Source: Candidatus Hydrogenedentota bacterium
Lineage (GTDB): Bacteria; Hydrogenedentota; Hydrogenedentia; Hydrogenedentales; SLHB01
Direction: 5' to 3'
Assembly: GCA_045863335.1 (NCBI GenBank)
Contig: BTVY01000004.1
Location: 32,001 to 96,000 of the forward strand
Length of the DNA: 64,000 nucleotides
The notes below the pieces were generated by a model that saw nothing but the letters and a program-made list of their open reading frames with translations, did no database searches and was not told the DNA's origin. Below are positions 1 through 32,074 of this stretch, piece after piece. Both the position numbers and the translations under genes were made by a program. The number at the start of each line of letters is the position of its first letter. Within the stretch, counting starts at the first letter, position 1.

Positions 1-434
1 CGACGGATTGCGTCTGCACAGATGAAGCGTACGTCACTTGCGGTGAATGTAAAATGACCAGAGGCCAGAACGTGCAGTCCCAACGCTTCAGCACTGTTTG
101 TGACTATATCAAGAAGCGTGAAAGAACTCCTGATCGCTTCGCAATCCACCGCGCATTTCGCTAAACGCTCAGTGCATAAACTGCGATCAAGTAGCGGCTC
201 GGCAAAGCTAGCTTCGGCCCGTGCACGAAAGCAGACTTGTTCGAGTGCGGCCGTAGCCCGCCATATTGAGCTTCGGCATTTGAAATCCTTTTGTTCCGGA
301 AGGACATTCGCTAAGCCGCATCGAAGCGCATAAAAGTAATCCCTTGATCGCAGATAACCACATGTCGCGTACGACCCTCTAAGTGCATCTGGCTTGAGTA
401 CCATCGCTCCTCTGAGGGTCGAGAGGGACGCCAT
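1..434 (-). CDS. Partial CDS running off the window; nucleoside-diphosphate-kinase-like protein
   Basis: Not in the ORF track. My translation from the ATG at 434 gives MASLSTLRGAMVLKPDALRG...AEALGLHVLASGHFTFTASDVRFI, open to the window edge. VLKPDA resembles the NDK N-terminal IKPDA motif. Directly downstream of the NUDIX gene on the same strand. Confidence 0.5.
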   Translation of the reverse strand, partial: MASLSTLRGAMVLKPDALRGSYATCGYLRSRDYFYALRCGLANVLPEQKDFKCRSSIWRATAALEQVCFRARAEASFAEPLLDRSLCTERLAKCAVDCEAIRSSFTLLDIVTNSAEALGLHVLASGHFTFTASDVRFICADAIR

Positions 435-444
435 GGCGGCTAGC

Positions 445-936
445 CTAGTCTTCGCGCAACTGCCCAGGACCGCACTTAAGTGTCCGAGCTTCCGGAACAA
501 AACCCTTTACTAAGTCATCTGCGAGCCAGTCACGTACCTCCAAAGGATACAGGGTGATAGAGTGTAGATCCTTAAACGAGACCCACATCGGTTCATGAAG
601 GTCGCCAGCCTTCGATTCCTCCAATTCCTCACCGCCCAAGGCGACTTGGCCTGAACAATAACTGCAGGCATAGAAGTAATGGTCACTATCGCCCACAAGG
701 TCGTGGTGGTAAAGGAGTCGATCGACGGACACGACTACCGAACACTCTTCCAGAATCTCCCGCACTACAGCTTCCTCAACCGATTCACCGCACTCTACCC
801 CCCCGCCGGGAAAAGTAAAATACACCCGGCCGTAGTGCGAACGTCTCATAAGCAAGACGGCCTGTTGGTGGAGAACGATTCCAACGGCGCGGGTGCCATT
901 CGGCTTATCTAATCGCGTTATTTGTTTCATACCCAT
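445..936 (-). CDS. NUDIX hydrolase
   Basis: Nudix box GGGVECGESVEEAVVREILEECSV. Confidence 0.9.
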   Translation of the reverse strand: MGMKQITRLDKPNGTRAVGIVLHQQAVLLMRRSHYGRVYFTFPGGGVECGESVEEAVVREILEECSVVVSVDRLLYHHDLVGDSDHYFYACSYCSGQVALGGEELEESKAGDLHEPMWVSFKDLHSITLYPLEVRDWLADDLVKGFVPEARTLKCGPGQLRED

Positions 937-1065
937 GCTTCACATTATTCTCAGCTACCGCCTTCGACTATCACGTAGACTGTCCCATTGCATACGGCAC
1001 TGCTTTATATGCCCCCCGGGAAACATCCGTACAGCCCACACTAAACCGTAAATTGGTGTCGAAAC

Positions 1066-2136
1066 TTACGACATTCCATTCACCAAAGCCTCCCACATTC
1101 TGGCCACGTGTTCCGAGGAGAGCTCCTCCGCTTCCTGCCGTGCTCTGACGCCCATCTTCGCTCTTAGCGAACAACAACTCAACAGCCTGCAAATGAGCTC
1201 GGTAAATTTTGCTTCGGTTGCAGGAACTTCAGGATCGCCAGCGACAAGATAACCTGTAGTACCTTCACGTACCCGCTCGGCTAAAGCTTCATAGTCGCTC
1301 AGGATGCATGGCGTGCCCGCGGCGGCGCTTTCAGCGGCGCTCAAACAAAACATTTCAGGGAAGCGGCAGGGGTAAATCATCAAAGCGGCCGATGCTTGTA
1401 TACATCGTAAGGCGTCTTTTGGGATCACTCCAAGCACCTCTACATTATAGCCTCCTGAAGTCAGCTTGTGAAGCAGGCGGTGATAGGGCTCCTCTCTGTC
1501 CTTTGCCTCTTCTGCTGTATAGCCCCACTGCTGATATCCACCTGTAACCCTCAGTAAAGCACTAGGGTGCCGATCCTGCACGCTCGGCCACAGACGCGCT
1601 ACAATATCTAATCCGCGGTTGGGCATGCTGCTGAAAAGACAAACCAGGTCGCGTTTTTCATGAGGAACAGGATTATACAAGTCGTAATCCACCGGAAGGG
1701 GTATGTACGATAGCCAGTTTGATGGAACCCCTGCGTCCCCTAGAACACGAGCCATCGCCCTTGAAGCAACAACGATTCTCGCTGCCCTGGGCCGGTACGT
1801 ACTTGCGAAGCGGCGTGAGCCTGAAGTCCGGTTGTCTAGCATCCAGAACAGTGTGGCCAGACGGCCGTGGGTGGGCTGTATCGCTTCTTCGCAGCGAACT
1901 GCGACGTACACATCCGGCGCTGGTGCTACTGACCACTCGTGAAGCAAATGCCAGTAGACCCCGTCGTAGCGGCCGGGTCTTAGACACGCATTAAACACGT
2001 GTATCTCATGTCCGAGCTTAGCCAAGGCTCGAGTCAACGTTACGAGGCAGCTTTCTCCACCGCCCAACCCAGGCATTTCGTAATCTGCGGGGGAAAAGGC
2101 AAAACGCTTGGGATAGTAAAAGTGCCATCTAGTCAC
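1066..2136 (-). CDS. Glycosyltransferase family 4 (GT-B)
   Basis: GGGE..LARALAKLGHEIHV at the N-terminus; FSSMPNRGL and YPCRFPEMFCLSAAESAAAGTPCI in the C-terminal domain. Confidence 0.85.
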   Translation of the reverse strand: MTRWHFYYPKRFAFSPADYEMPGLGGGESCLVTLTRALAKLGHEIHVFNACLRPGRYDGVYWHLLHEWSVAPAPDVYVAVRCEEAIQPTHGRLATLFWMLDNRTSGSRRFASTYRPRAARIVVASRAMARVLGDAGVPSNWLSYIPLPVDYDLYNPVPHEKRDLVCLFSSMPNRGLDIVARLWPSVQDRHPSALLRVTGGYQQWGYTAEEAKDREEPYHRLLHKLTSGGYNVEVLGVIPKDALRCIQASAALMIYPCRFPEMFCLSAAESAAAGTPCILSDYEALAERVREGTTGYLVAGDPEVPATEAKFTELICRLLSCCSLRAKMGVRARQEAEELSSEHVARMWEALVNGMS

Positions 2137-2810
2137 TGTATGAGCCCTCGGCGCCTACAACGATCAAAGTGCTCGAGAACGATTTCTGTCAGAACTTCCG
2201 GTTCTACGCCATCGGTATTCAGGACCAGTACATCTGGTACATTTTCTTGAAGAAGGCGGAGAAGGCTTAGGTCCCATTCTTCAAATACGGATTGGTCGTA
2301 CTCCAAGAACCTGTAATTCTCTACCTTGGTGGTGCGGCCATTCTCAAAGTCACTTCTATGGCGGAGGATTCTCACCTGGAATGGCGTTGTCAGAAAAGCA
2401 CATCCGCCGTAACAAACAAGCAAAGACCGGAACGCTTCAAAGAAGTTCGTCATAATCGTGTCAGAGTCGATGATGGCTTTTGCCCAGGCCCTGTAGTGAG
2501 AACTCACCTTTACAGTGGTGTTACCGTTCCGCTCGCAAAAAAGTATGCCGTCTACAAGCGGTCCGAGCAAATAAACACTGCGCTTCAGCGTTTTCTCTAA
2601 CCGCGAGGAGCGTCCAACCCCTGCAAGGTATGTCAGGCGGCAGTCAAGATACTGAAGCGGTGACCGAACAAGAGGACCAATGACAACTGAAATCGGTCGC
2701 ATGCACCGCTCGCCCAGCGCGCTCGCGAGATGCCGAGCGAGCGTCTTCTTTCCCGAGCAATCGAGCCCTTCTATTAGATACGGGCGGCAATTGCGACGAT
2801 GTAGCATCAT
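2133..2810 (-). CDS. Thymidylate/nucleoside-monophosphate kinase-like P-loop protein
   Basis: LIEGLDCSGKKTLA matches the dTMP-kinase-type P-loop. 4-bp overlaps with both neighbours. Confidence 0.7.
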   Translation of the reverse strand: MMLHRRNCRPYLIEGLDCSGKKTLARHLASALGERCMRPISVVIGPLVRSPLQYLDCRLTYLAGVGRSSRLEKTLKRSVYLLGPLVDGILFCERNGNTTVKVSSHYRAWAKAIIDSDTIMTNFFEAFRSLLVCYGGCAFLTTPFQVRILRHRSDFENGRTTKVENYRFLEYDQSVFEEWDLSLLRLLQENVPDVLVLNTDGVEPEVLTEIVLEHFDRCRRRGLIQ

Positions 2811-3982
2811 GACACCAGTCTTGGCGAAGATACGGTGTCATCTAAACTACCATGCGGGGCTAGGTACAAGGGTTCACCCACTCGGAGACTTTCCTGTACG
2901 AGCTGTTCTACTTGTGCCAAGGCCACCGTGCCAAGTGAAAGTAGATCAAGAAGGTGGAGAGGGCACGGTGGAGAACTAGCTACAAAGGCGTAATTCCACG
3001 AATCCTGCCCATCCGGCAGACAGTGTACAGGTTCTCTCGTTCTCAACGCAAAGCCAAGATCTTCGAGCGCAGACAGAGCCAAACCTATCCTCCCATATGT
3101 ATTGCCGAAATGAGTCACTCTTGCTCCAAGACAGGAGAGCACCGCCTCAACGATAGCGATGAGGCGTGCGCCCACTACCGTAGTCCCTGAGACAAGTCCT
3201 TCCGCGATGTCATGGAGGTTAGTACTCTTCACTGGCCCTGCCCTGCCCGATAGCGGGTCGATCACAATTTGGCAAAAGGTTCCGCTTCCCGCGGCCCACG
3301 CAACTCGGTATATGCTCAAGTCCTCTGAATGCCCGAAAGCTAGTTTTGTATACTCAGAAGCATGGTCAGCAATGGCCATTCGCGCGAGGACGGACTCAAT
3401 AGTCCGAGCGTAGGAATCCAAAACCCGGGCAATGACAAAACGTTCTGGAGCCTTTGTTAGACTCCGTAAGTGGACATCGGGTAACGAACAGAAGACATAT
3501 CTTGAAAGGTCAAAATTGCTCATGTTCACAACTTCACCCAAAGTTGTATTTCCACTTTCACTGAGATTAGTCCTCAGACAGTCATACTGCATCGCTACTG
3601 CATTTCTTTCAGACGCCGTAAGTCCAGAACCGGATCGCACCCCGTTGTCAAACACTGGGTGGAGAAACTGCCAAGCCAAGTGCGAGGGCATCCACCATGG
3701 CACGTATGCAAGAAAACTTGGGAGTTCGAACAGATTGGCACGCACGGCATCACTCGACGGTAGGGTTGGAATACCCGTACCGCTGAAGCGGATAAACCTG
3801 AGCGTGCATCCTCCCCCTTTTCGCGGTACCTCGTTTAATATTCCGATGTTCTCGCGAACGATACTAATATGTCGGTGATAATATACGGGCATGCGGGATG
3901 ATGGGTTCACTGTAGGATGCCACCCATCGGTATAGGAGAAGCTCCCAGAGTACTCTACTGCCGTCACTGGAGTAACTCCCAA
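2807..3982 (-). CDS. Hypothetical protein in the nucleotide-modification operon
   Basis: 391-aa ORF overlapping both neighbours; no motif recognised. Confidence 0.65.
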   Translation of the reverse strand: MGVTPVTAVEYSGSFSYTDGWHPTVNPSSRMPVYYHRHISIVRENIGILNEVPRKGGGCTLRFIRFSGTGIPTLPSSDAVRANLFELPSFLAYVPWWMPSHLAWQFLHPVFDNGVRSGSGLTASERNAVAMQYDCLRTNLSESGNTTLGEVVNMSNFDLSRYVFCSLPDVHLRSLTKAPERFVIARVLDSYARTIESVLARMAIADHASEYTKLAFGHSEDLSIYRVAWAAGSGTFCQIVIDPLSGRAGPVKSTNLHDIAEGLVSGTTVVGARLIAIVEAVLSCLGARVTHFGNTYGRIGLALSALEDLGFALRTREPVHCLPDGQDSWNYAFVASSPPCPLHLLDLLSLGTVALAQVEQLVQESLRVGEPLYLAPHGSLDDTVSSPRLVS

Positions 3983-5442
3983 GGGGTTAAGGGTGACTCG
4001 CGAAGTAACTCACGATAGACGGCCAGATTACGGTCCAGTTCATTTCTTTTTGCATCCGTGCTCCCGGAGCGAGGCAGGTGATGGACGTGGAAAACACCAG
4101 TACTAAGAACTGGGCTCACGAAGAAACCTCGCGCAATCATCTTAGCTGCAAAACTGACGTCTTCGGGCCCCCAACCTTCGAAAGCTTTGGCAAATCCTAC
4201 CTCTGTCGCCGCGTTGCGTCTAATACTGAAGTTGTTGCCTTTGACCATAAAAGGAAGGTCTACGGGCCCCAAATTCGAGTAGTATCCAAAAGTACGAAAG
4301 TTATCAGTAGATGCCAGCGGGGTAACCCTAACTCGTTCTGGTACTTGCCGGAGTCCCGGCCAGTTCGCGGGGTAAGTGGCAACAGTTCGAGAATCAAGCG
4401 ACGTGTCTGGGAGACGGTCCGGGATCGCAGTGTTGTTGATGTCCTCTCTCAAGGACACAAGTATCAGGTTCGGAAAAACCCTGTGCCTCAACCAGTGATT
4501 TATGATGTAATTCCGCGAGAGGTACGTATCTGCATCCAAGAAGAAGACAATACTGCCCCGCGCAACAGCGAGTCCCAGATTTCTGGCTCCCGCGCAATGC
4601 TGGCGGGAGGTAGAACGGATAACTGCGACCGAAGGACTAATCTTAGTAAAGTCACACTTGGTAGTACAGCCGTCATCAACAACGATGATCTCCGCCTTCA
4701 CGTTGTGCGGAAGTGGCTCTAAAGCGAGCAACACCGATGACACAGTGTTCGCTATTGTGCTATCAGCGCGATAGCAGGGGATGACAAACGAGATGGTATC
4801 TGAAACGAGGTCGAAGTGGGAAGGAGTATGGTGACAGTCGCCGTAGACGAAGTCGACGTTGAAGAGCGATTGACAGAGATGTGCTGCCAATGAATAGTCA
4901 TTGGATTTCCTTTGGAGAAAGTCAACCGTAGTCCCAAAAGAGGCAGACTGGGAAACAGGTGTAAGGTAGCCGAGGCACGAAAGAGCGTCAGTTCCTGCGT
5001 GAATCGGGAAAGCTGCTGCAACAGAGCATGAGGCAAGGTCCCTTGATGCGAACCGACGCAAGTTCTCTAGGGTCACTGGTACGAAGCCTTGAGTTGCCCA
5101 AAAACATCGTGATTCTCGAGCCTTTGTCTCTAACAATAACGTAAAGTTTTCGCAATCTCGAAGTTCGGGAGCGCTAAGAAGGGCAAAAGTTGAGTTCGTG
5201 TTGATAGAGAAGGACTGCCCAGAGGACGAGAGGCGAAGTGATGGGTAGCCGGGTGGTCTGAGGAGCAAGAGCTCGGAATGTCCGAGGCGCCAAAGAATAC
5301 TAGGAATCAACGGAGGCATACCGGCGCAATGAAAATGCGATAAGTCATCCATAGCACGCCCTGTCCTGGGGTGGTTGCACATTTGGAAAGGTATGCTTGA
5401 CCATGTTCGAGGCAGCATCTCCTCAGCTCTCAAAATGAGCAC
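3964..5442 (-). CDS. Glycosyltransferase family 2 with an N-terminal extension
   Basis: ISFVIPCYR, IIVVDDG, AGARNLGL, FFLDAD, GWGPED motifs. Confidence 0.88.
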   Translation of the reverse strand: MLILRAEEMLPRTWSSIPFQMCNHPRTGRAMDDLSHFHCAGMPPLIPSILWRLGHSELLLLRPPGYPSLRLSSSGQSFSINTNSTFALLSAPELRDCENFTLLLETKARESRCFWATQGFVPVTLENLRRFASRDLASCSVAAAFPIHAGTDALSCLGYLTPVSQSASFGTTVDFLQRKSNDYSLAAHLCQSLFNVDFVYGDCHHTPSHFDLVSDTISFVIPCYRADSTIANTVSSVLLALEPLPHNVKAEIIVVDDGCTTKCDFTKISPSVAVIRSTSRQHCAGARNLGLAVARGSIVFFLDADTYLSRNYIINHWLRHRVFPNLILVSLREDINNTAIPDRLPDTSLDSRTVATYPANWPGLRQVPERVRVTPLASTDNFRTFGYYSNLGPVDLPFMVKGNNFSIRRNAATEVGFAKAFEGWGPEDVSFAAKMIARGFFVSPVLSTGVFHVHHLPRSGSTDAKRNELDRNLAVYRELLRESPLTPWELLQ

Positions 5443-5550
5443 ACATACCGCGATGGGTCAGCACATGGAGAGCTTTAGCAATTGCAGTATAGCAGACGGC
5501 GTACCAAAGGACATCGTCTTTAAGGAACTTTGTTTAAGAAGCTGACCTTC

Positions 5551-5799
5551 AGTAGACTTCGAGACTTCAGGGACTTCACCCGGGGCCTGGTCTCCCCCTT
5601 GCCAATCTCCCCCTGTCCGATAGAATGGAATGGCCCATCGAGTCAGTCTGAAAAATCGTTTTCCTCTTGACCACCTTCCGGCAAAATGACGTTTTCCTCG
5701 GCAGTTGTACGGCAATGTTTGATCACTCCGGCAAGCATTACCTCCAAAGTTCGAAGTCTGCCTCGATACGGGTCACAATAAGCCCAAACTTCGAACTTT
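5551..5799. repeat. Cassette boundary repeat A: GACTTCx3 motif, promoter, alternative recombinase C-tail (5643-5776, -) and attP-like site
   Basis: Homologous to 7088-7317 and to 8201-8260 plus 8719-8899. 15-bp inverted arms 5746-5760 and 5785-5799 (1 mismatch) centred on GT 5772-5773. Confidence 0.88.
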
Positions 5800-5893
5800 A
5801 GAATTTGGCTCAACGAAGCCATTTATGAGGAACGAAAAACCGTAGATTCTGAGGATTTTTGCCTTGTCTCATTGAATCCACTCGGGAATCGAA

Positions 5894-6418
5894 CTAACTT
5901 TTCGAATTGGCTTGTTGGTTTTGATTTAAGTGAAGGTACTGCACATATTTCTCTCTTATTTCGGGTAGCCGCTCTAGGTTCCCCCGGCTTAGGATGGAGA
6001 CGAGCTCGTCAATCAAGGATAGGGTATCTTTGATTGGTTTTAATGCGGATCGCGGATTCATTCTAAGATGCAACGCTACCCGTTCGAGTGTGGGCGTGTT
6101 CGATTTGGGTTGAGTGCCGTCATGGCGTGTATGGATGGTGAAGAGTTCTTCTTCATCCTGAACAAATTCAAATAATTGCTGGTGGGTTTTCTTAGTGGAA
6201 TTCTCGGACGAATCTTCGTTCTCCATAGAATCAAGGGCTGAACCAATAGAATCCAACAACTGAGTGTTGAGAGCTTGGAGTTTCTTGCGAGCATCCGGAA
6301 GTTCGAGTCCCGTTGACCCTTCTAACCCCCTTAATTGTGCCTCAAGATCTGTGTATGTCATTAGCCTAAGAATATAGAAACAGGGCACAGCCCGCAAGAC
6401 TCTGCCCTGTTTCATCAA
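5894..6418 (-). CDS. Hypothetical protein (cassette cargo)
   Basis: ORF track; the real start may be the downstream MTYTDLE. Confidence 0.55.
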   Translation of the reverse strand: MMKQGRVLRAVPCFYILRLMTYTDLEAQLRGLEGSTGLELPDARKKLQALNTQLLDSIGSALDSMENEDSSENSTKKTHQQLFEFVQDEEELFTIHTRHDGTQPKSNTPTLERVALHLRMNPRSALKPIKDTLSLIDELVSILSRGNLERLPEIREKYVQYLHLNQNQQANSKS

Positions 6419-6420
6419 AA

Positions 6421-6627
6421 TTATCTACTGGCAGGGTCGCTACACTCGTCGCAACTACCCCGATGCTCTACGCCGCTATTTCCGGTATCCTTCTCGACCC
6501 AGGCATGGCAATGGTCACTTTCTCCCTTGCCGGTAGAGAAGACATCAACTTGATGGCTTGATTCCTTGATGATTATGCGATCATCACCGCTACGATGTAC
6601 TTCGGGCTTTGGAGCCACTGTTTTCAC
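6421..6627 (-). CDS. Small hypothetical protein, His/Cys-rich C-terminus (cassette cargo)
   Basis: GGAG RBS adjacent to the GTG start; HCHAW and CDEC residues. Confidence 0.55.
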   Translation of the reverse strand: MKTVAPKPEVHRSGDDRIIIKESSHQVDVFSTGKGESDHCHAWVEKDTGNSGVEHRGSCDECSDPASR

Positions 6628-6761
6628 CTCCTTCGTCTTCGTTGAGTGTCAGTGCCTCCTCTTCTTGCACCCCAATTGTACCCGGCAATCTATCATTTTG
6701 TCCAATTTTAGGACAATTGAATTAAATCTCACTTCGTATGCGGTATATGCGGGATCGCATG

Positions 6762-6790
6762 CCAAAAGAGCCCCGATGGGGCTCTTTTGG
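6762..6790. terminator. Bidirectional rho-independent terminator
   Basis: CCAAAAGAGCCCC-gat-GGGGCTCTTTTGG hairpin directly after the stop of 6791-7039. Confidence 0.75.
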
Positions 6791-7039
6791 TTACGCTTTT
6801 TCTTCGATTTTTTCCAGTCGCCGGCGATGATCGCCAAGGTGGTCGGCAAAGTAATCCAAACGATTCTCGACACTGGTTAGCCTTAACTCTACCCGGGCTA
6901 ACCTGTTTTCAACTTTATCCAAACGATTCTCGACGCCATCGAATCTTTCGTCCACGGCATTAAATCGTTCGTCCACCGCGTCAAAACCGCATTTGACCAT
7001 CAGTGCTAAATCATCAAGAGTGGTTTTCTTCTTCGGCAT
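6791..7039 (-). CDS. Small coiled-coil protein with heptad repeats (cassette cargo)
   Basis: TTLDDLALMVKCGFDAVDERFNAVDERFDGVENRLDKVENRL; followed by a terminator. Confidence 0.75.
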   Translation of the reverse strand: MPKKKTTLDDLALMVKCGFDAVDERFNAVDERFDGVENRLDKVENRLARVELRLTSVENRLDYFADHLGDHRRRLEKIEEKA

Positions 7040-7087
7040 ATTACTTTAAGTTTAATGCTTGTGTGTTGTCTGTCAAGATTGAAAAAC

Positions 7088-7317
7088 AGTAGACTTCCGG
7101 ACTTCGGGGACTTCACCTGGGGTCTACCCACCTCTTGCCAATCTCCCTCTGTCCGATAGAATGAAGTGGCCGATAGGATTAGTCTAAAAACTCCTCTTCC
7201 TCTTGACCATCCTTCGGTACCGAAGCAAAATCAGCCATGTGTGTACCGCAATATTCGACCACTCCGGCAAAGATTGAGTCCAAAGTTCGAAACCTGCCTC
7301 TATACGGGTCACAATAA
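7088..7317. repeat. Cassette boundary repeat B, with alternative recombinase C-tail at 7179-7312 (-)
   Basis: Encodes DPYRGRFRTLDSIFAGVVEYCGTHMADFASVPKDGQEEEEFLD*. Shares GGGTCACAATAA with repeat A. Confidence 0.88.
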
Positions 7318-7385
7318 TTTGCCTCCGGCGGCAAAAAATACCACCTAGACAAGGTGAAAATTTGTGTCAAAAGACACCCTTAGGA

Positions 7386-7541
7386 CTACTTAGTCTGGTT
7401 GTTCTGATACTCCGATTCCTCGACTATTTTATAGGCAACCTCGACAAACCGCCTGAGATTCTCTTCGGCTGCCTCAAGCCCATTATCCGAGAGTTGAGGG
7501 AACAATCGTCTTAATCGATTAAGACTTTCCTTGTGGGTCAT
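7386..7541 (-). CDS. Small protein paralogous to the ORF upstream of the recombinase
   Basis: LFPQLSDNGLEAAEENLRRFVEVA versus LYPELSEEQLEIAEENLRRFVEVA in 10325-10564. Confidence 0.7.
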   Translation of the reverse strand: MTHKESLNRLRRLFPQLSDNGLEAAEENLRRFVEVAYKIVEESEYQNNQTK

Positions 7542-7579
7542 ATAAATCAAGGGATTATGGTTTATACACATCGACCATC

Positions 7580-7701
7580 TTGACAATCCCACCAAACCCG
7601 CTAGAATGAAGATGTGCTTGTGGGCGCAAGCCCCGTTCAGCTAAGGATTTCCTAAGCTGAAGGCAAGCACACCAAAGGAGCCCCTGTGGGGGCTTTTTTG
7701 G
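7580..7701 (+). ncRNA. Candidate small structured RNA with its own promoter and terminator
   Basis: TTGACA-16bp-TAGAAT (7580-7607). Then a GTGCTTG...CAAGCAC closing stem enclosing GGGC-GCAA-GCCC and TTCAGCT...AGCTGAA hairpins, then an AGCCCC...GGGGCT-TTTTT terminator. Confidence 0.5.
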
Positions 7702-8163
7702 TTACTCATCTTCGATATTCTTGTCATGTAACCGTTGGCCATTCTTGAGTTTTGAATCCGGCATGACGCTCCAGAAAATAATATTGCCGTCACCAATCCG
7801 TCTGAGAATTACCCGGATCTTGATTTTATTCTGGCCAGTGATGGCGGCGAAGCCCCAGTAGGTAGTCTGCTTCAAGGCAGTGAAGCCACTTTTGGATTTC
7901 TTGCCAATCGGACTCATCGTTTCGCGGAATTCTTGAAGAGTTCCTGATTTCCGAATCACATCAAGCGCTAGTGGCAGCAGGCGGAATTTAAGCATCTGCT
8001 CATCCTTGGACCGCTCTCGCCTGGCTGAAAATTGAAGATGATGAAAACCGTCCGAATTGAGTCTAATCGGAGACTGAAAATAAGGGCAGAGGATCTCCTT
8101 CTGGCGGGAGTAGATAGTCTCGGCCTTACGTTTGTATTCGGCGAACTTTTCCGCTTCAATCAT
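7702..8163 (-). CDS. Hypothetical protein, possibly a BECR/RelE-like nuclease fold (cassette cargo)
   Basis: Basic 153-aa protein with CPYF, GFHHL and IIFWSVMP motifs; the fold is an inference. Confidence 0.6.
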   Translation of the reverse strand: MIEAEKFAEYKRKAETIYSRQKEILCPYFQSPIRLNSDGFHHLQFSARRERSKDEQMLKFRLLPLALDVIRKSGTLQEFRETMSPIGKKSKSGFTALKQTTYWGFAAITGQNKIKIRVILRRIGDGNIIFWSVMPDSKLKNGQRLHDKNIEDE

Positions 8164-8200
8164 AGCGTCATCATAATATCGGCAAAAGCCGAGTCTGCCA

Positions 8201-8260
8201 AGTAGACTTCAAGACTTCAGGGACTTCACCTGGGGCGTACCCGCCTTTGCTAATCCTCCT
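8201..8260. repeat. GACTTCx3 part of boundary repeat C, separated from its promoter/tail part (8719-8899) by a ~460-bp insert
   Basis: AGTAGACTTCAAGACTTCAGGGACTTCACCTGGGG matches 5551 and 7088. Confidence 0.85.
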
Positions 8261-8365
8261 TTTATCCAAATGTGTGTGCACATTACCATAGACCCTTGAC
8301 GCGATTTGTAAGACTGGTAGTATTGACTCTAGATTCCACAACTAGAACCTAAGAGGAGAAATGAT

Positions 8366-8620
8366 ATGTTACTCAACAACACGGAGTTTTGGCTACTTGA
8401 GCACATCGAAAGAAATCAAACTGTGCCCAAAGAACTGTGCAACTTAGCCCGCAAGCTTGCGTCGTTAGGATTGCTTTGTCTTGGCTACCACAGAGACGGG
8501 ACTAAGGTTAAGGAGACGGGTAGTTTAACTTTCTTGGGGCGGCAGATTGTGAGATTGGAACGAATTGAGCGTAGTCCGTTTCGGTGCGCTCTTCAATCTT
8601 TCTTTGCACCTTTTATTTGA
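8366..8620 (+). CDS. Small hypothetical protein with its own promoter, RBS and terminator
   Basis: TTGACG..TAGTAT (8296-8323), AGAGGAG RBS, hairpin GCACCTA...TAGGTGC followed by a T-tract (~8652-8698). Confidence 0.6.
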   Translation: MLLNNTEFWLLEHIERNQTVPKELCNLARKLASLGLLCLGYHRDGTKVKETGSLTFLGRQIVRLERIERSPFRCALQSFFAPFI

Positions 8621-8765
8621 TTGCCCACAATACCTATCTTGTAATGACGCGGCACCTATTAGTTTAGATCAACTAAATGACTAGGTGCTTTTCTTTTTCT
8701 GTTTACGTTCAGTAATCACTCTTGCCAATCTCCCCCTGTCCGATAGAATGGAATGGCCCATAGAG

Positions 8766-10328
8766 TCAGTCTGAAAAATAGTCTTCCTCTTGACCGCCTT
8801 CCGACACCATGTCCATATTTTCCACATTTGTACGGCAATGTTTGATCACCCCGGCAAGCATTGCCTCCAAAGTTCGAAGTCTGCCTCGATACGGGTCACC
8901 GTTTGTCGGTTTTCGCCGATTAGCGATGATGTCGAAGGGAGAGGATAGCTCAACCACAACGTTTCTTTCGTTCACCGCCAGGTTCGAAGTCAGCGTTCCG
9001 AGCAATTCTCGCTTCGTGTCTTTTAGAGCCATTTCGTAAAGCACTGGAGCCGAATTTGCCCGTTCGAAGATCTCACGCACCCGATATAGGACATCATTTG
9101 CAGAGGACTCCAATTCTGTCCGGGCTTTTTCAGCCGCCATCCGGTCGGCAATCAGGTTCTCCTTTCTTTCTTCATACATTTTGCGGTCAATAGCCTGATC
9201 GAGATAGGCGTCGGTCAGTCGGTTGAGTCTGTCTGTGACTCGTTTAATCCGAAGTTCCAGGGCTTTGGTCAGTCCGGCTTTCGTTTCTAACCACGACGCC
9301 CGATGCGCATCGATGAGTTGGGTCAACTTCTTCCTTTCGCGATCGGAGAATTCCAGAGAGCCTAGTGTTGCGACTACCGCTACATCTATGGCTTCCTCAC
9401 GGACGCCTTTCGTCGGACAAGTTCGAGAGTGGCACCGGTAGTAAGTGTGCCCCTTCTGGCATTCCCCAGACATCGTATAGCCGCAATGACGGCATGTGAT
9501 GAGTTTTCGGTAGAGGAAGCTATTTCTTCGCGTGCGAACGGGTGTCCGGCCGGTGAGAATGGCTTGAACACGGTCAAAGACGATACGGCTGATTAAAGGT
9601 TCATGATTGCCCTCGAAAACTTCGCGGGTTCGGGCGAGTCGGATCAGACCCGTATAGAAGGGATTGTTCAAGAGCCTTGAAATGCCGTTCAGCGAAATAC
9701 TCGTTCCGTGACGGTTACGAAGGCCTGATTGATGCAATTCCGCCCGAAGCGTGTCCAGCGTATATCGGCCGGTGGCGTACAGATCAAAAGCCCGCTTCAC
9801 CGACGGTGCCGTCGATGGGTCGAGAGTCTTCTTGGCGCCACCGCCATTATCCAAGTATCCAAGTGGGGCAGGCAACGGATAAAACCCTTGTTTCAGCCGG
9901 CCATAGAAGCCCTTGCGGCTTTCCTCTCGGAGATTCCGAATGTAGTCAGCAGCAACGACAGCCTGAATGTCTGCCGATAATCTTCCGCCACGCGTGTGCA
10001 GATCCAAGCCTTCATTCGCAAAGTGGATCTTTATCCCCCTATCGATGAGTTCACCGAGCTTTGCCCAGTCGCGTAGATTCCGGGCGCTACGGTCGATCTT
10101 GTGAATGACGATTCCGCTGGCCTTCCCTTGTCTTAACCGGCTTAACATTTGGCCGAAGACCGGCCGACCGCTCTTGGCCGCTGTCTGGCGCTCTTCGAAC
10201 CATTCCACGATCTCTAACGATTCGCGCTCGCAGTAGCGCACAATGGCGTCTCGTTGCTCCTGGAGCGAAACGCCCTTTTCTCCTTGTTTGACGGTGGATA
10301 CGCGCACATAGGCGAAGACTTTGTTCAT
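8766..10328 (-). CDS. Large serine recombinase (resolvase, recombinase, zinc-ribbon and coiled-coil domains)
   Basis: YVRVST catalytic motif, KIDRSARN, PAPLGY, NPFYTG, HEPLIS, CRHCG...YYRC....C. Confidence 0.95.
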   Translation of the reverse strand: MNKVFAYVRVSTVKQGEKGVSLQEQRDAIVRYCERESLEIVEWFEERQTAAKSGRPVFGQMLSRLRQGKASGIVIHKIDRSARNLRDWAKLGELIDRGIKIHFANEGLDLHTRGGRLSADIQAVVAADYIRNLREESRKGFYGRLKQGFYPLPAPLGYLDNGGGAKKTLDPSTAPSVKRAFDLYATGRYTLDTLRAELHQSGLRNRHGTSISLNGISRLLNNPFYTGLIRLARTREVFEGNHEPLISRIVFDRVQAILTGRTPVRTRRNSFLYRKLITCRHCGYTMSGECQKGHTYYRCHSRTCPTKGVREEAIDVAVVATLGSLEFSDRERKKLTQLIDAHRASWLETKAGLTKALELRIKRVTDRLNRLTDAYLDQAIDRKMYEERKENLIADRMAAEKARTELESSANDVLYRVREIFERANSAPVLYEMALKDTKRELLGTLTSNLAVNERNVVVELSSPFDIIANRRKPTNGDPYRGRLRTLEAMLAGVIKHCRTNVENMDMVSEGGQEEDYFSD

Positions 10329-10564
10329 CGTCGCTTTGGATTAGTGATTGGTGATGATCGGATCGTAGATCGCGATTCGGAATCTGTCAACGGTGGGGTT
10401 GTGGACTGATTCACGCTATCTTGTTCGGCCTGCTCACAGATGCGGATAGCGACCTCCACAAACCGCCGGAGATTCTCCTCCGCGATCTCCAATTGTTCTT
10501 CGGAAAGCTCTGGGTACAGTCCGGCCAATTCCGCCCGCGAAGGCCTCTCCTTGTCGCTATTCAT
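10325..10564 (-). CDS. Small protein translationally coupled to the recombinase (possible directionality or regulatory factor)
   Basis: ATGA overlap with the recombinase start; paralogue at 7386-7541. Confidence 0.65.
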   Translation of the reverse strand: MNSDKERPSRAELAGLYPELSEEQLEIAEENLRRFVEVAIRICEQAEQDSVNQSTTPPLTDSESRSTIRSSPITNPKRR

Positions 10565-10677
10565 GACTGCAGTTTGCCTGAAACGAAATGTGAGAGAGAG
10601 GCAGTGCTTCTTTACCCATCCAACAAGATCGAACGCCTACGATGCCCTCGCCCGGACCGGCACAATGGTCACACACT

Positions 10678-11991
10678 ATGGCTAAGTCATACAAAGAATC
10701 ATCCCTCAGTCTGGCAAAGGCGTCTCCATCCAAACCGCTCGCTTCGGCAACCCTTGCGGACGGTGGTCTACTGGAGACCCTCTACGATCCAATCGAGAAG
10801 CGGACAAGTTTTTGTCTCGCGAGGGAAGGCAAATGGAAGACTGCTTCGGAGATCGTGATCGATCGTCAGAAGTTTGTGCCGTATTCGCCGGAGAATAATC
10901 TTATCCAACACGGCACGGTACTGTTTCCTTCGGCCGTGGAAGAGTACGGAACCGAAGCGGAGTTGGTACAAGACATCAGGGAGTTCATTCGCCGCTATGT
11001 GGACTTGTCTCCACTTTTCGAAGAGGTTGCCGCCTATTACGTCCTGTTCACGTGGCTCTACGATAGTTTCAATGAATTGCCATATCTCCGCGCAATGGGT
11101 GACTACGGCTCGGGTAAGACTCGGTTCCTGCTAACGGTTGGGTCTATCTGCTATCTGCCTATCTTTGCGAGTGGTGCTTCCACCGTCTCACCCTTGTTCC
11201 GAATCCTGGATGCGTTTCGGGGTACGCTCATCATTGACGAGGCCGACCTTCGTTGGAGTGATGAGCGGGCGGATATGGTCAAAATCCTGAACAACGGGAA
11301 TGCGCGCGGGTTCCCGGTACTACGAACGGAACTCACACCTACTCGGGAATTAAACCCCGTCGCGTACTCCGTATTCGGACCCAAGTTGGTGGCGACACGC
11401 GCTGAATTCAGCGACAAGGCGCTGGAAAGCCGGTTTCTAACCGAACGGATGGGCGTACGCCCGCTCCGAGCGGATATCCCTATCAACCTACCCAAATCGC
11501 TTTGGCAGGAAGCCCGAAATCTGCGTAACAAGCTGCTTGCTTTTCGTATTCGAAATCATTCGCTCGTGCGGCCCCTGGAGGGTGTCGCAGACGCCAATTT
11601 AGAGCCCAGACTGAACCAGATATTTTCCCCGCTCCTAAGTGTGATCCAGGAACCCGAGGCACGTGATAAGATTCGGTCACTCATCCGGCAATACAACCGG
11701 CAGGTGATTTCCGAGCGGGGTATGACGGCGGAGGCACAAGTTTTGGAGGTGATGCGTGCGCTTCTGAACGCCAACGAACCACTGTCTGTTAAGGTCATAA
11801 CGGAACGTTTCGCCAATCTTCATGAAGCCGAGTATCAACGAAAGATCACGCCAAGATGGATTGGTTGGCTTATCCGGCAGCGCTTGGGCTTCTCGACAAA
11901 CAAGACCAACGGAACTTTTGTCGTATCAAACCTCGATCCCGAAGTTCTTGAGAGATTGGAAGCAAAGTATGGTTTGAAGTCGCTCGATTAA
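10678..11991 (+). CDS. P-loop ATPase of mobile elements (primase-associated helicase-like replication protein)
   Basis: Walker A GDYGSGKT, Walker B TLIIDEAD, ALESR arginine-finger-like motif. Start chosen at ATG 10678. Confidence 0.75.
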   Translation: MAKSYKESSLSLAKASPSKPLASATLADGGLLETLYDPIEKRTSFCLAREGKWKTASEIVIDRQKFVPYSPENNLIQHGTVLFPSAVEEYGTEAELVQDIREFIRRYVDLSPLFEEVAAYYVLFTWLYDSFNELPYLRAMGDYGSGKTRFLLTVGSICYLPIFASGASTVSPLFRILDAFRGTLIIDEADLRWSDERADMVKILNNGNARGFPVLRTELTPTRELNPVAYSVFGPKLVATRAEFSDKALESRFLTERMGVRPLRADIPINLPKSLWQEARNLRNKLLAFRIRNHSLVRPLEGVADANLEPRLNQIFSPLLSVIQEPEARDKIRSLIRQYNRQVISERGMTAEAQVLEVMRALLNANEPLSVKVITERFANLHEAEYQRKITPRWIGWLIRQRLGFSTNKTNGTFVVSNLDPEVLERLEAKYGLKSLD

Positions 11992-12014
11992 CCAGTCCAG
12001 TGATTCACTCCGTG

Positions 12015-12049
12015 TACCCCTGCGAAGTCCCTGAAGTCCCGATGTCCAC
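12015..12049. repeat. Inverted copy of the GACTTCx3 motif (candidate iteron/origin)
   Basis: The reverse complement GTGGACATCGGGACTTCAGGGACTTCGCAGGGGTA aligns to 5552, 7089 and 8202. Confidence 0.65.
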
Positions 12050-12147
12050 AGAAACTTGCCGGTGTAGGCAAAGCAAACACCCTTCGGAGTCGCTCATCTT
12101 GCGGTAAACTGGAAAGGCACAAAGGTCGAAATTATTCGCAAACAAAC

Positions 12148-12507
12148 TTGCATGAAGTGTCATCTCCACAGTTCCTCCCCAACTACATTCGTTCGCATCG
12201 AAAGCAGCTGAATCTGACACAAGATGAAGTGGCATTCTTGATGGGTTGTGTTAGCAGCGCCAGCGTGTCTCGCTACGAGCGTTTTGCTCGAACGCCCACT
12301 TTGAAGAGTGCCCTTTGGTTTGAACACATACTTCAAGTTCCGGCTCGAGAGCTATTTGCGGGCACGTTTGAGACGGTAAGAAAATCGACGCATGCCCATG
12401 CTCGCGTTCTAGCACGGCAAGTCGAGCGAAAGTGCCCAGCCGGTCCGGCTCGTGACCGCAAACTGAAAGCACTTCTCGCAATTATAAGGACCACCGAATC
12501 TCGATAG
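12148..12507 (+). CDS. XRE-family HTH regulator
   Basis: IRSHRKQLNLTQDEVAFLMG...VSRYERFARTP. Confidence 0.85.
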   Translation: MHEVSSPQFLPNYIRSHRKQLNLTQDEVAFLMGCVSSASVSRYERFARTPTLKSALWFEHILQVPARELFAGTFETVRKSTHAHARVLARQVERKCPAGPARDRKLKALLAIIRTTESR

Positions 12508-12509
12508 CC

Positions 12510-13049
12510 ATGTCTGTGGGCACGGGAATTCGCACGCTTGCGATCCACATTGATTACCGGGGTTTTGGCTATATCGTTTTGGAGGGCGGGAACCGGTTGG
12601 TCGATTGGGGGACCAAACAGACAACAGGGGCGGGGCGCAAGAAGACGCTCGATGTTGTTGCGGACCTCGTTGTCCTCTACCAGCCTGACTACGTACTTCT
12701 TGAAGACTTGATTCACGATACGCATCGCCGAAGTGCCCGCGCCGTTCTTCTGACGAGAAAGATCGCAATACACATGGTGGAAAGCGGCAAAGATTGCCGA
12801 CTCGTACCGACAGAACTCATCAAGTCCACTTTTCGCCGATGGGGCGCCAATACGAAGCAGGAGCGGGCCAACCTCATCTCTAGGCAGTTGCCGGTGTTGG
12901 AACCGCGCCTGCCCCCGCCGCGCAAGCCCTGGATGAGCGAAGATGCGCGCATGAGCATTTTTTCGGCCGCGACTGTTGCTTTGACGTTCCTTGACAACTA
13001 CCGATTCATAAACGCGCCACAGACTAACCGCGATCAAGATGAAGCGTGA
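12510..13049 (+). CDS. RuvC/RNase H-fold-like protein
   Basis: TLAIHIDYRGFGYIVLEG..LVDWG, PDYVLLED and GANTKQE pattern. Confidence 0.55.
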   Translation: MSVGTGIRTLAIHIDYRGFGYIVLEGGNRLVDWGTKQTTGAGRKKTLDVVADLVVLYQPDYVLLEDLIHDTHRRSARAVLLTRKIAIHMVESGKDCRLVPTELIKSTFRRWGANTKQERANLISRQLPVLEPRLPPPRKPWMSEDARMSIFSAATVALTFLDNYRFINAPQTNRDQDEA

Positions 13050-13482
13050 ACCGCGGGTGCTGGGCGTTGCGTCTGCTGCTCGCGCCTGTGGACTCGTCGT
13101 CCTTGAAGGCTCCGACATCGTCTATTACTGGGCCGTACCGTACGACCGCTCCAAGTCTCCTGTCCAGAATTTCGCTGCGATACGAAAGCGGCTCGTATCC
13201 GTGACAAACTACCTTCGTCCGAGTCAAATTGCCCTTTCTATGCGGGAGTACGTGCGTTCTAGAGACCGTGCGATTGTTGATTGCGTGTTCGCGGAAGCGC
13301 AATGGCTAGCTCGCACCCACCAGATCCGGTTCCGGTCGATCGATGTTCACAATAGATTCCGGACCAATCTTCGATTGGCCGAGCTATCCCGTATGTCATT
13401 GCCTACCGGCGCGCGCCGTTCACTTCACCTGGCTTATGAGGCTGCCTGGGCGGTCTATCACCGTTCCAACCGAGCACGCTGA
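13039..13482 (+). CDS. Degenerate RuvC-like paralogue
   Basis: RVLGVASAARACGLVVLEG resembles the N-terminus of the preceding ORF; genes overlap. Confidence 0.45.
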   Translation: MKREPRVLGVASAARACGLVVLEGSDIVYYWAVPYDRSKSPVQNFAAIRKRLVSVTNYLRPSQIALSMREYVRSRDRAIVDCVFAEAQWLARTHQIRFRSIDVHNRFRTNLRLAELSRMSLPTGARRSLHLAYEAAWAVYHRSNRAR

Positions 13483-13671
13483 GAACTTAAGCCGAACCAA
13501 ACCGCCAACAAGACTTCTTTTCGGGAGCACGACCGTCCCTAAAGCTGCGAGGACCGATTAACCCCCTCGTGGCTTTAGGGCCGGTGGTGCAAACAAAGCA
13601 GAGATCTTTAACAACCCGACAACTAACTTGCGGCCACGCCTGTGGCGTGGTTCGCAGAAAGGAGAATTGAA

Positions 13672-14700
13672 ATGGCGACATTGACACGCGCACATGATGA
13701 GTTGTTCCGGCGCGCGCCGGATACACGGTTCGCGTCACTGGACGATCTTCACTCGCACTGCGATCGGGAGAAGAAGGAGTCCATGGAACGGTGGGTAGTC
13801 CCGGAAAAGTTCCGTTTCGTCGTAGACGGCGGTTATCCCCGGTTGGCCTTCAATGGGGATATGCCGCATACCATGTCCGACTGGAGCTTTTCCCAAGTAT
13901 GCCGCATGGCGGAGGTCCAGAAAGACACAGTGAACCGGCTTACTGCTGAGACCGCCAGTCGAGTGCTTATGGAAACCCTGCCAAGGGGCAGTCGGCCGAT
14001 TCAGGCATTTTCCTTGGGAGAGTCGCTGCGGTCGATTCACGGGGTGAGTTACCGTCGGCTGTACAATGCCGATTTGCTCAACACCGTCCGCGAGCACGCG
14101 GTGGGATTCTCTCCGCCGCAGGTGGCGGCGAATGGCGGCACCGGGTTGTATTGTGGCGAGCAGGACATGTTCTGTTTCCTCGTCGACCCGACCGGCTGGG
14201 TGGAGATCGAGAACGAAGCTTTCGCACCGGGGTTCTTCCTGTGGAATTCGGAGGTTGGCCGGCGGTCCGTGGGGATTCAGAGTTTCTGGTTCCAAGCGGT
14301 CTGCCAGAACCATATCGTCTGGGATGCCATCCCGGCGACGCAATACCACCGAAAGCATACGGCGAATGTCGATACGGCCCTGGACGAGATCCGGGAAACT
14401 ATCGACTACCTCGTTTCCAAACGGGATGAGCGCCGCGATCGCTTCGTTCGTATTGTGCAGCAGGCCATGAACATACGGCTGGACGATGACCTGGAGGAAA
14501 CGTTGCAGACGGTTCAGCAACAAGGTTTCAGCCGATCCCTGGCCAACGCCGCGCTGGAAGCGGCGCAGCGACAGGGCGCATTGACCCTGTTCTCCCTGAT
14601 TGATGCGCTGACGCGGCTTTCCCAGGAACGTCATTCCTACGCCGGAGACCGGGCGGACGCAGACGAACGCGCCGGGAAGTTGCTGGCGCTAGCCGCCTAG
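13672..14700 (+). CDS. DUF932-like mobile-element protein
   Basis: MATLTRAHDELFRR; GLYCGEQDMFCFL; GFFLWNSEVG; AVCQNHIVW; AGGAG RBS. Confidence 0.75.
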   Translation: MATLTRAHDELFRRAPDTRFASLDDLHSHCDREKKESMERWVVPEKFRFVVDGGYPRLAFNGDMPHTMSDWSFSQVCRMAEVQKDTVNRLTAETASRVLMETLPRGSRPIQAFSLGESLRSIHGVSYRRLYNADLLNTVREHAVGFSPPQVAANGGTGLYCGEQDMFCFLVDPTGWVEIENEAFAPGFFLWNSEVGRRSVGIQSFWFQAVCQNHIVWDAIPATQYHRKHTANVDTALDEIRETIDYLVSKRDERRDRFVRIVQQAMNIRLDDDLEETLQTVQQQGFSRSLANAALEAAQRQGALTLFSLIDALTRLSQERHSYAGDRADADERAGKLLALAA

Positions 14701-16546: not shown

Positions 16547-16658
16547 CGATGCGCCATTCAGACCCTATTTGAGCCGTTCTCCGATCCTTCACTCTTCATG
16601 CTATTCTGTCACGGGTATGTACCGTTATGAGCCGAAGTGGCGGTTATGTGAGGATCAG

Positions 16659-31771: not shown

Positions 31772-32074
31772 ATGTCGAATATGAATAAGGAAATGCTTCT
31801 ACCGAAGTGGGTGCCCGGAATTGTCAAACACGATTTAGGTTCTGAGTCATTTCTCCATGATGAGCAGAATGAGCGCATCCACGTGCTTAATTGCACTGCG
31901 AGTCTTATCTGGGATCATTGCGATGGTCATACTTCCTATCAAGAGATGCTTGGTATTTTACTGAGAGAGTTTTCGGATGTTACGGTTGATGTGCTACGAA
32001 TAGACTTAGGGCGGGCATTGAAGGAGTTTGCAGAGCGTGGCGTCGTGATGACGCGTGAACAGCCTTGTGAGTGA
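31772..32074 (+). CDS. PqqD family protein / RiPP recognition element
   Basis: HVLNCTASLIWDHCDG...LRIDLGRALKEFAERGVV. Confidence 0.85.
   Translation: MSNMNKEMLLPKWVPGIVKHDLGSESFLHDEQNERIHVLNCTASLIWDHCDGHTSYQEMLGILLREFSDVTVDVLRIDLGRALKEFAERGVVMTREQPCE

Follow-up and report, generated by a model that had tools for sequence, protein, structure and literature searches.

A candidate attachment site inside the gene of a large serine recombinase, and the array of recombinase-less units behind it

Introduction

How do the last 43 codons of a recombinase gene come to stand three times in a row, each time in front of a different set of genes? The question is raised by a locus in a 64,000-nt stretch of the genome of a Candidatus Hydrogenedentota bacterium (assembly GCA_045863335.1, contig BTVY01000004.1, forward-strand positions 32,001 to 96,000; this whole stretch is referred to as the window). 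Here, a gene for a large serine recombinase (8766-10328, minus strand) is followed by two further copies of its own 3' end. A sequence-only reading had proposed that the recombinase captures circular units at a site within its own gene, each insertion restoring the open reading frame (ORF) with a new tail, in the manner of an integron. The coordinates and the sequences of the recombinase and of the three 43-aa tails given in that reading are correct. The comparisons described below make it probable that the core of an attachment (att) site lies inside the recombinase gene, and that site-specific recombination there adds and removes units devoid of a recombinase, the tail of the enzyme being replaced at each insertion.

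Results

The last 43 codons of the recombinase gene, together with 50-95 nt past the stop codon, recur as direct copies at 7088-7312 and 5551-5776 (features are on the minus strand unless another strand is given). At the nucleotide level, a 184-nt direct repeat (5593-5776, 7129-7312, and 8716-8899; 89% and 73% identity; spacings of 1536 and 1587 nt) is adjoined by a 67-nt repeat (5551-5617, 7088-7154, and 8201-8267). Copies A (5551-5776) and B (7088-7312) are continuous blocks of ~226 nt, and in copy C, which is part of the recombinase gene region itself, the last block is displaced by ~450 nt (8268-8715). Tails A (5643-5774), B (7179-7310), and C (8766-8897; codons 478-520 plus stop, currently on the recombinase) are each 43 aa long, with no indel and no internal stop. 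Homology between the copies begins abruptly at GTGACCC, read on the minus strand (at 8899, 7312, and 5776), and the sequence to the left of GTGACCC is unrelated. In whole-genome BLAST, the repeat copies gave E values of 1e-34 to 1e-65, and no tail copy was found elsewhere in the 6.75-Mb assembly, all being confined to the array locus.

Read in the direction of the recombinase, the order is recombinase, tail C with unit 1, tail B with unit 2, and tail A with unit 3. The array continues past unit 3, beyond the window, with copy E, a 20-nt stub at C4:31284-31303 (about -700 in window numbering, C4 being the contig of the window), unit 4 (4.87 kb), and a decayed tail copy, D (C4:26313-26435, window -5687 to -5565), with an internal deletion of ~90 nt. 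Contigs of public run X1 bridge every junction at an even depth of 15-21; X1 is the probable source run and is not independent of the assembly.

The onset of homology always falls on the same GT, within codons G477-D478-P479, and a GT stands directly to the left of the homology at every junction read. Relatives were collected in a one-genome-per-species scan, which returned 446 family members; counts of loci rest on the best 80 of these 446. For each locus, the 180 nt that begin at its junction served as the self-BLAST probe. Among 75 evaluable recombinase instances of other phyla, 13 had one to three direct downstream copies starting at the junction, 0.29-5.9 kb away, while the 180 nt before the junction, used as a control, gave copies in none of the 75. 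No upstream tail copies were detected at the nucleotide level in these 75 instances. Loci without a pre-junction match to the hidden Markov model (L056, L060, L081, and L089) or with too little downstream DNA (L042 and L098) were left out of the count, and weak or partial matches in L083, L071, L087, L066, L096, and L101 (an internal duplication), as well as a match at +190 in L067 that fell below the length filter, were not taken as orphan tails. In L101, the duplication (11431-11540) is in tandem, ~54 nt long, and sits within the tail immediately past the junction.

The stretch shared within an array measures from 32 to ~215 nt, the minimum corresponding to one half-site of the putative att site, and about half of the arrays share the whole tail plus ~30-50 nt past the stop. 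The units lack a recombinase gene and carry varied cargo across arrays, as had been proposed for the window; an in-frame tail in every unit, which had also been proposed, is not a general property, some arrays sharing ~30 nt, one half-site.

Two further kinds of junction break at the same point. The junction is the starting point of an opposite-strand tRNA gene in seven of the 80 loci. These seven belong to Patescibacteria-type metagenome-assembled genomes (MAGs) of the candidate phyla radiation, and in two of them an orphan tail is present upstream, at distances of 5.7 and 7.7 kb. Metagenome contig L024 encodes a recombinase that shares 73% identity with P0002, the second-closest homologue, and that turns foreign right after G-D-P; its matching orphan tail (88% identity to tail A) is located 5.3 kb upstream and has the same orientation. 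A recombinase separated from its tail in this manner is the picture to be expected of an element integrated via an att site inside the recombinase gene. The 82-aa gene of unit 2 recurs at 86% nucleotide identity at the start of L024, just before the orphan tail. The same contig holds a further 581-aa ORF (L024:13640-15385) with a tRNA-like translated end (…DPTGNRTPITGLKSRCPNR), which suggests another family recombinase cut by a tRNA gene. The breakpoints at one GT in the window, the 13 other arrays, the seven tRNA-integrated relatives, and L024 thus point to a recombination site in the recombinase's own 3' end, where the sequence-only reading had placed it.

Whole units differ between close relatives. 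In four loci from four assemblies, which have near-identical recombinase genes, no unit (L052 and L054), one unit (L050), or three units (L059, 5.89 kb) are present, and the last unit of L059 is that of L050. Unit sets that vary behind homologous recombinases, empty sites included, had been named as a check of the capture model and were thereby found. The flanks of the four loci are 99.2-99.95% identical. In alignments of the L052, L050, and L059 junctions, the sequences cease to be identical no more than a few nt from the core, the differences between L059 and L052 starting ~5 nt after it; the single tail of L052 is matched exactly by the distal tail in L059 and in L050. The stretch shared at the core of this allelic series is too short for a crossover by homologous recombination, and site-specific exchange would explain the series.

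Unit 1 was also encountered outside the window's genome. Part of 5400-10400 was present in 19 public runs, and four of these were aligned to 2000-13000, all as contigs. X3 and X6, which stem from two further studies, contain 7309-8843 at ~100% identity, no contig piece having more than one substituted and one inserted letter. The two runs share an unlike flank below 7309, and X3 also has an unlike flank above 8899; these foreign flanks are absent from the window's genome. The flank below 7309 reads tail-like, with its TCGAAC 6 nt nearer the core, and the X3 flank above 8899, which has a stop five codons before the junction, is therefore the end of another unit and not of a recombinase. Since unit 1 lies between other neighbours elsewhere, it is a discrete module that ends at two GTs, in support of the sequence-only reading. 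Window parts not covered in X2, X3, and X6 were not used as evidence. Units 1 and 2 were not found in 134 other genomes of the phylum. Three sets of apparent excision products were rejected: the joint 7163->8845 in X2 corresponds to the flanks of decayed copy D placed on paralogous tails (90% likeness), the X1 record on 5722-5776 plus 7099-7160 to copy D flanks mapped to paralogues, and the loose ends at 8899 (X2) and 7099 (X1 and X2) likewise to copy D flanks.

Large serine recombinases act at a 2-bp core in a site of ~50 bp, the distal motif being displaced between half-sites of attP and attB type. The putative core GT (8898-8899) and the right half-site occupy 8869-8899, codons G477-T486, with TCGAAC starting 20 nt after the GT. 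TCGAA is found at +20 from the GT in 49 of 56 family junctions and at +14 in the three tRNA junctions scored (3/3), with L040 likewise by eye. For a Listeria phage integrase, the consulted part of PMC3783163 describes a zinc-ribbon motif that is 5 bp nearer the centre in attB than in attP; the +20 and +14 spacings of tails and tRNA junctions are a pattern of this attP/attB-shift kind. The invariant R485-T486 of the protein is encoded by the TCGAAC of the half-site, so that the "conservation" of the tail is partly a DNA constraint. Site A (5746-5799), singled out earlier as a recombination site, is a real palindrome with perfect 12-bp inverted arms (5746-5757 and 5788-5799). Counted from the GT at 5775-5776, its left arm motif is 14 nt off and its right arm motif 20 nt off; it is the sole left half of a unit that mirrors the right half, though at the 14-nt spacing. 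The left half-sites of units are rich in hairpins, a stem of at least 5 bp occurring in 10 of 19, versus 11% of control segments.

The recombinase, a 520-aa ORF product, consists of a catalytic Resolvase domain, a Recombinase domain, a zinc ribbon, a coiled coil, and the C-terminal tail. Pfam family PF00239 matches residues 4-148 at 99.7 bits (cut-off, 23.3), PF07508 and PF13408 also score above their Pfam cut-offs, and a PHROG integrase is matched at 3.7e-90. With an N-terminal resolvase domain followed by a Recombinase domain and a zinc ribbon with an inserted coiled coil, the protein has the make-up of a large serine recombinase; against the NCBIfam models of CcrA, CcrB, and CcrC it scores far below the cut-offs. 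In the AlphaFold model, residues 329-433 are helical, with long helices at 329-376, 382-408, and 413-433 (pLDDT 85-94). The junction falls in a low-confidence linker (473-482), which is followed by a helix (483-500) and a disordered acidic end (504-520).

Of 8000 candidates scored, 5388 are recombinase homologues at E<=1e-60. P479 and R485 of the tail are kept in 110 of the 120 best, and the motif xPYRDxPRTxDxL is plainly conserved in the family, by which the C-terminal tail appears as a native part of this recombinase family. By eye, six of the 120 have unrelated ends starting no more than three codons from G477, three of them resembling the translation of a tRNA gene; when 60 related genomes were searched, the alignments of the top two matches broke off at residues 478 and 486. 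The same-genus genomes G001-G005 contain no close homologue, and a protein search with the tail alone matched one other protein. A protein profile of the family tail still gives good scores to diverged orphan tails (that of L032, for example), which were therefore once real C-termini. Beyond codon 12, pN/pS is 0.25-0.39 in four arrays (L033, L065, L078, and L059) and ~1 in L057. A side observation concerns the very end of the protein, which is -AA in 35 of the 120 closest family members (P0001-P0120). The ending may be akin to ssrA-like degradation tags.

While the family has 446 members in the one-genome-per-species set of bacteria and archaea, 2.9 million viral contigs yielded a single locus, so that this is not a family of typical phage integrases. 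Whole-genome BLAST found no second recombinase of the same type in the 6.75-Mb assembly. A second, unrelated large serine recombinase (30% identity) lies outside the window on the same contig, 29 kb further left (C4:9853-11373). In genome G057, two family recombinase genes, of 541 and 466 aa, stand in tandem, the second directly behind the first (L021:6850-9912).

Unit 1 (7311-8897, 1587 nt) comprises tail C, a promoter-like block, small ORFs, a GAAGTC-repeat block (8201-8267), a hairpin (7318-7335), and the GT at its distal end (7311-7312). An 84-aa ORF lies in the segment that displaces the last block of copy C (8268-8715); the others are a 153-aa ORF (7702-8163) and a 69-aa paralogue (7386-7595) of the 79-aa small protein described below. 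Unit 2 (5775-7310, 1536 nt) consists of tail B, three ORFs, and the left half of site A, the ORFs being of 82 aa (6791-7039, coiled coil), 68 aa (6421-6627), and 174 aa (5894-6418). Copies B and A each contain, in this order, GT, right half-site, tail, promoter-like block, and GAAGTC-repeat block. Unit 3, whose window part is 1-5774, measures 6.47 kb in all and ends at the stub (C4:31303); it encodes two glycosyltransferases, a NUDIX protein, and unnamed ORFs.

The promoter-like block (TTGCCA, 16 nt, TAGAAT) is located on the plus strand at 8722-8749, with copies at 7135-7162, 5599-5626, and 7580-7607 (10-11 of 12 matches; TTGCCA or TTGACA as the first element). All four are antisense to the recombinase and the unit genes, and the block is the best-conserved part of the repeat. 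The GAAGTC block, three repeats, sits after the stop of the tail copies and recurs inverted at 12017-12053, after the stop of a 449-aa gene; its 15-nt core has six occurrences in the genome, five of them at the array locus. The GAAGTC repeats could be iterons or a protein-binding site. Rfam returned nothing but a sub-threshold match to a small RNA (7573-7711; 22.6 bits, gathering score 50).

Two genes accompany the recombinase. The first, encoding a 79-aa protein with the motif LYPxL[ST]ExELxxAExNLxRY (10325-10564), overlaps the recombinase start codon, and in 73 of 81 recombinase instances a homologue of ~70 aa is encoded immediately upstream, on the strand of the recombinase; the product is possibly an accessory or directionality factor. 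Units of the window, L065, L103, and L059 contain copies of the small gene close to their distal end. Because the small upstream gene recurs in this way, descent of such units from recombinase operons minus the recombinase is suggested. The second, on the plus strand and divergent from the recombinase operon (10642-11991), encodes a 449-aa protein with P-loop motifs recognized by eye (GSGKT, IIDEAD); homologues are divergent from the recombinase, again by eye, in L024 and L052. The 449-, 153-, 174-, 84-, 79-, and 69-aa proteins matched no Pfam, PHROG, NCBIfam, or PADLOC family, in searches that did not pair all proteins with all libraries. No family was matched by the small ORFs of units 1 and 2, and the 82-aa ORF had sub-threshold coiled-coil matches alone.

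When 20 cargo proteins of other arrays were compared with Pfam, 12 matched a family at E<=0.001 and eight none, and 10 of the 12 were above the curated cut-off: Fic, PemK/MazF, Schlafen-AlbA_2, NYN (beside a helix-turn-helix (HTH) regulator), OLD-type ATPase-TOPRIM, glyoxalase, ORF6N, a LexA-type DNA-binding domain, a Mutator-type transposase, and a histidine phosphatase. Unit 4 (L023:6436-11302, which is C4:26436-31302) encodes Multiubiquitin, a DUF6791-ThiF (E1-like) protein, DUF6527, and a CapP-like M78 peptidase (PADLOC capP, 2.5e-55), and looks like a ubiquitin-like operon of defence type with a regulator. The units in the window are co-oriented with the recombinase. Units in L033, L078, L065, L059, and L103 have genes on the other or on both strands, some with their own HTH regulators; because of this mixed orientation across arrays, a common promoter is unlikely.

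Further to the right in the window lies a module (12148-14700) of an HTH protein, a DUF932 protein, and two ORFs judged RuvC-like by eye, which is also present beside a family recombinase in G057 (L021) and G021 (L022). A 541-aa ORF at 16569-18194, to the right of the array locus, resembles ComM/YifB by eye. In G021 (L022), a recombinase similar to that at C4:9853-11373 abuts a truncated ComM-like ORF beside a family recombinase. It is possible that all 40 kb of this region constitute an island at comM.

Discussion

The arrangement can be accounted for as follows. The core GT would lie in the reading frame of the recombinase, in the linker before the last helix (G477-D478-P479), and the first ~10 codons of the tail would double as the right half-site. 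Each unit would start with a tail copy, made up of the right half-site, the rest of the tail, and a conserved non-coding block, and would end with a non-coding left half-site, often with a short hairpin, and then GT. Units would enter and leave as the recombinase carries out an exchange at the GT, with the in-gene site as one partner and that of a circular unit as the other. On insertion, the recombinase would gain the incoming tail, and the old tail would shift downstream; as insertions push older tails away, the distal copies are the decayed ones. Some units would be derivatives of recombinase operons that lost the recombinase and kept the small upstream gene beside the left half-site. We infer that catalysis is by the window recombinase, that circles are the intermediates, and that insertion takes place next to the gene; the order of insertion is deduced in the same manner.

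Several observations weigh against this account. The absence of indels and stops in the three 43-aa tails, to which the sequence-only reading had given importance, is true of the sequences and weak as evidence: pN/pS between the window tails A, B, and C is 0.75-1.2, which is nearly neutral, and the 49 nt after the stop are better conserved (82-94% identity between copies) than the coding tail (70-87%). "Restoring the ORF" may thus be of little weight in the window. The loci of the allelic series are MAGs, of which L052 and L054 show 100% identity along 16 kb and could come from a single population, and the series fits the loss of units as well as their gain. The circle joints proposed as a check were seen in none of the four runs, in contigs, not raw reads (the apparent ones being copy D on paralogues), and no empty site was seen for the window's own recombinase. 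An intact chromosomal site without an array is the state of 62 of 75 family recombinase instances. The left half-sites of units bear no resemblance to the recombinase's own left half (11.5 of 36 positions, compared with 9.0 +/- 2.7 for random segments). Finally, the serine integrases studied in the consulted part of PMC3783163 do not accept site pairs that share their right halves.

Some of these points would be natural if the array were a static fossil, in which complete elements integrated serially, each lost its recombinase by deletion, the tails are relics, and nothing moves today. The near-neutral window tails and the decayed copies D and E agree with this, as does the retention, in units of the window, L065, L103, and L059, of the small gene that normally precedes the recombinase. 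Independent deletions, however, would not all stop at one GT. Moreover, L052, L050, and L059 differ by whole units in backgrounds more than 99% identical, and unit 1 occurs at ~100% identity in other samples with other neighbours at both junctions; both imply recent movement, and we consider a fossil array unlikely. The repeats are direct and, at 130-230 nt, long enough for RecA-dependent deletion, so local duplication and homologous recombination between them, with no site-specific enzyme, might also be invoked, and loss of units through repeats would produce a similar allelic series. It is difficult to reconcile such a process with copies that are 73-89% identical and yet enclose unrelated cargo, with homology that starts at one nucleotide in every locus and extends over just 32-62 nt in some arrays, with diagnostic differences between L059 and L052 from ~5 nt after the core, or with tRNA integration at the same point, and of all the explanations considered we give it the least credence.

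Only marginally better placed, and very improbable in our judgement, is the possibility that the stack is a store of alternative C-termini, swapped by deletion and altering stability, partner binding, or direction, with the cargo incidental. Every proximal tail seen is an intact ORF, the tails of L033, L065, L078, and L059 are under purifying selection beyond codon 12 (pN/pS 0.25-0.39), and the -AA endings of 35 of 120 family tails would fit a role in stability if, as we assume, they are akin to degradation tags. Against this, direct repeats permit one-way loss and not switching, the window tails are near-neutral and the model shows disorder at residues 504-520, some orphan copies amount to no more than a half-site, and the cargo is substantial and looks like genes for defence or addiction. 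Site-specific gain and loss of units at the GT therefore remains the explanation we prefer.

A broader proposal is that the family is a serine-recombinase counterpart of the integron, that is, a dedicated platform in Acidobacteriota, Verrucomicrobiota, Proteobacteria, and other phyla by which small circular units, many of them for defence or addiction, are captured, stacked, and exchanged at a site in the recombinase's own coding sequence. We advance it tentatively, and on balance lean slightly against it. If it were true, every unit would have to bring a working C-terminus, since any unit inactivating its helper would be trapped in place. Should the preferred reading hold, bacteria would have a second, mechanistically unrelated route, serine-based instead of tyrosine-based, for stacking and trading small gene units. 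The route would be one seen in many poorly studied phyla, with cargo ranging from a MazF-type toxin, Fic, an OLD-type nuclease, Schlafen-AlbA, and NYN proteins to a ubiquitin-like operon. The coding sequence would double as a recombination site, the invariant R-T being the half-site TCGAAC. Genome engineering, in which this compact and cofactor-free class of recombinases is already used, would also gain naturally paired short sites from the loci.

A full-text search of the literature, which did not cover supplements, found no description of an attachment site inside a serine recombinase gene with arrays of this type. Integrons have a tyrosine recombinase, IntI, attC sites that act as folded single strands, and cassettes that mostly lack promoters, share one orientation, and lie behind a common promoter. 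The present array has in common with them a recombinase gene, an adjacent site, and a one-sided series of small, diverse units without recombinase; unit sets vary between close relatives, and the left half-sites of units are rich in hairpins. Unlike in integrons, there is no tyrosine IntI, the sole recombinase being of the serine type, cargo across arrays is in both orientations and often has its own regulators, and the repeat is a piece of the recombinase gene and not attC. The array is similar to an integron in layout only; in this respect the analogy drawn by the sequence-only reading stands, and in enzyme and cargo orientation it does not.

The integrase gene is partitioned on integration in SSV1-type systems, and the repressor gene is split in the integration-dependent immunity of mycobacteriophages; both rely on tyrosine integrases and are not known to form arrays. 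They are like the present case in that the att site lies in a gene of the element and integration alters a C-terminus, as in the tRNA-integrated relatives and L024. Shufflons and invertases switch C-termini reversibly through inverted repeats, whereas all tail copies here are direct. Staphylococcal SCC composite islands are tandem islands behind rlmH and have serine recombinases. They are named beside the Dehalococcoides ssrA islands in the consulted part of PMC3146451, which describes the latter as tandem islands with CcrB-like serine recombinases and direct repeats of the gene's 3' end. As in the ssrA islands, tandem units stand behind one gene, some without integration genes; unlike here, the ssrA and SCC islands use an essential host gene (ssrA, rlmH), have ~20-bp repeats, and mostly carry their own recombinase.

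In accretion of the ICESt1/ICESt3 type with cis-mobilizable elements, according to the portion of PMC5704250 consulted, integrase-less units are stacked at one att site through site-specific recombination. The present array likewise has integrase-less units between putative att sites beside an element that encodes an integrase, each unit with the 3' end of the target gene and some of them decayed-looking. Its target is not the end of a host gene such as a tRNA gene, ssrA, fda, or rlmH, but the recombinase's own codons 477-486, tRNA genes serving as the target in Patescibacteria-type relatives only. Where ICESt1/ICESt3 accretion, as described there, relies on a tyrosine integrase and targets a host gene at its end, a large serine recombinase would here act on its own gene, and because of this choice of target each event would rewrite the C-terminus of the enzyme.

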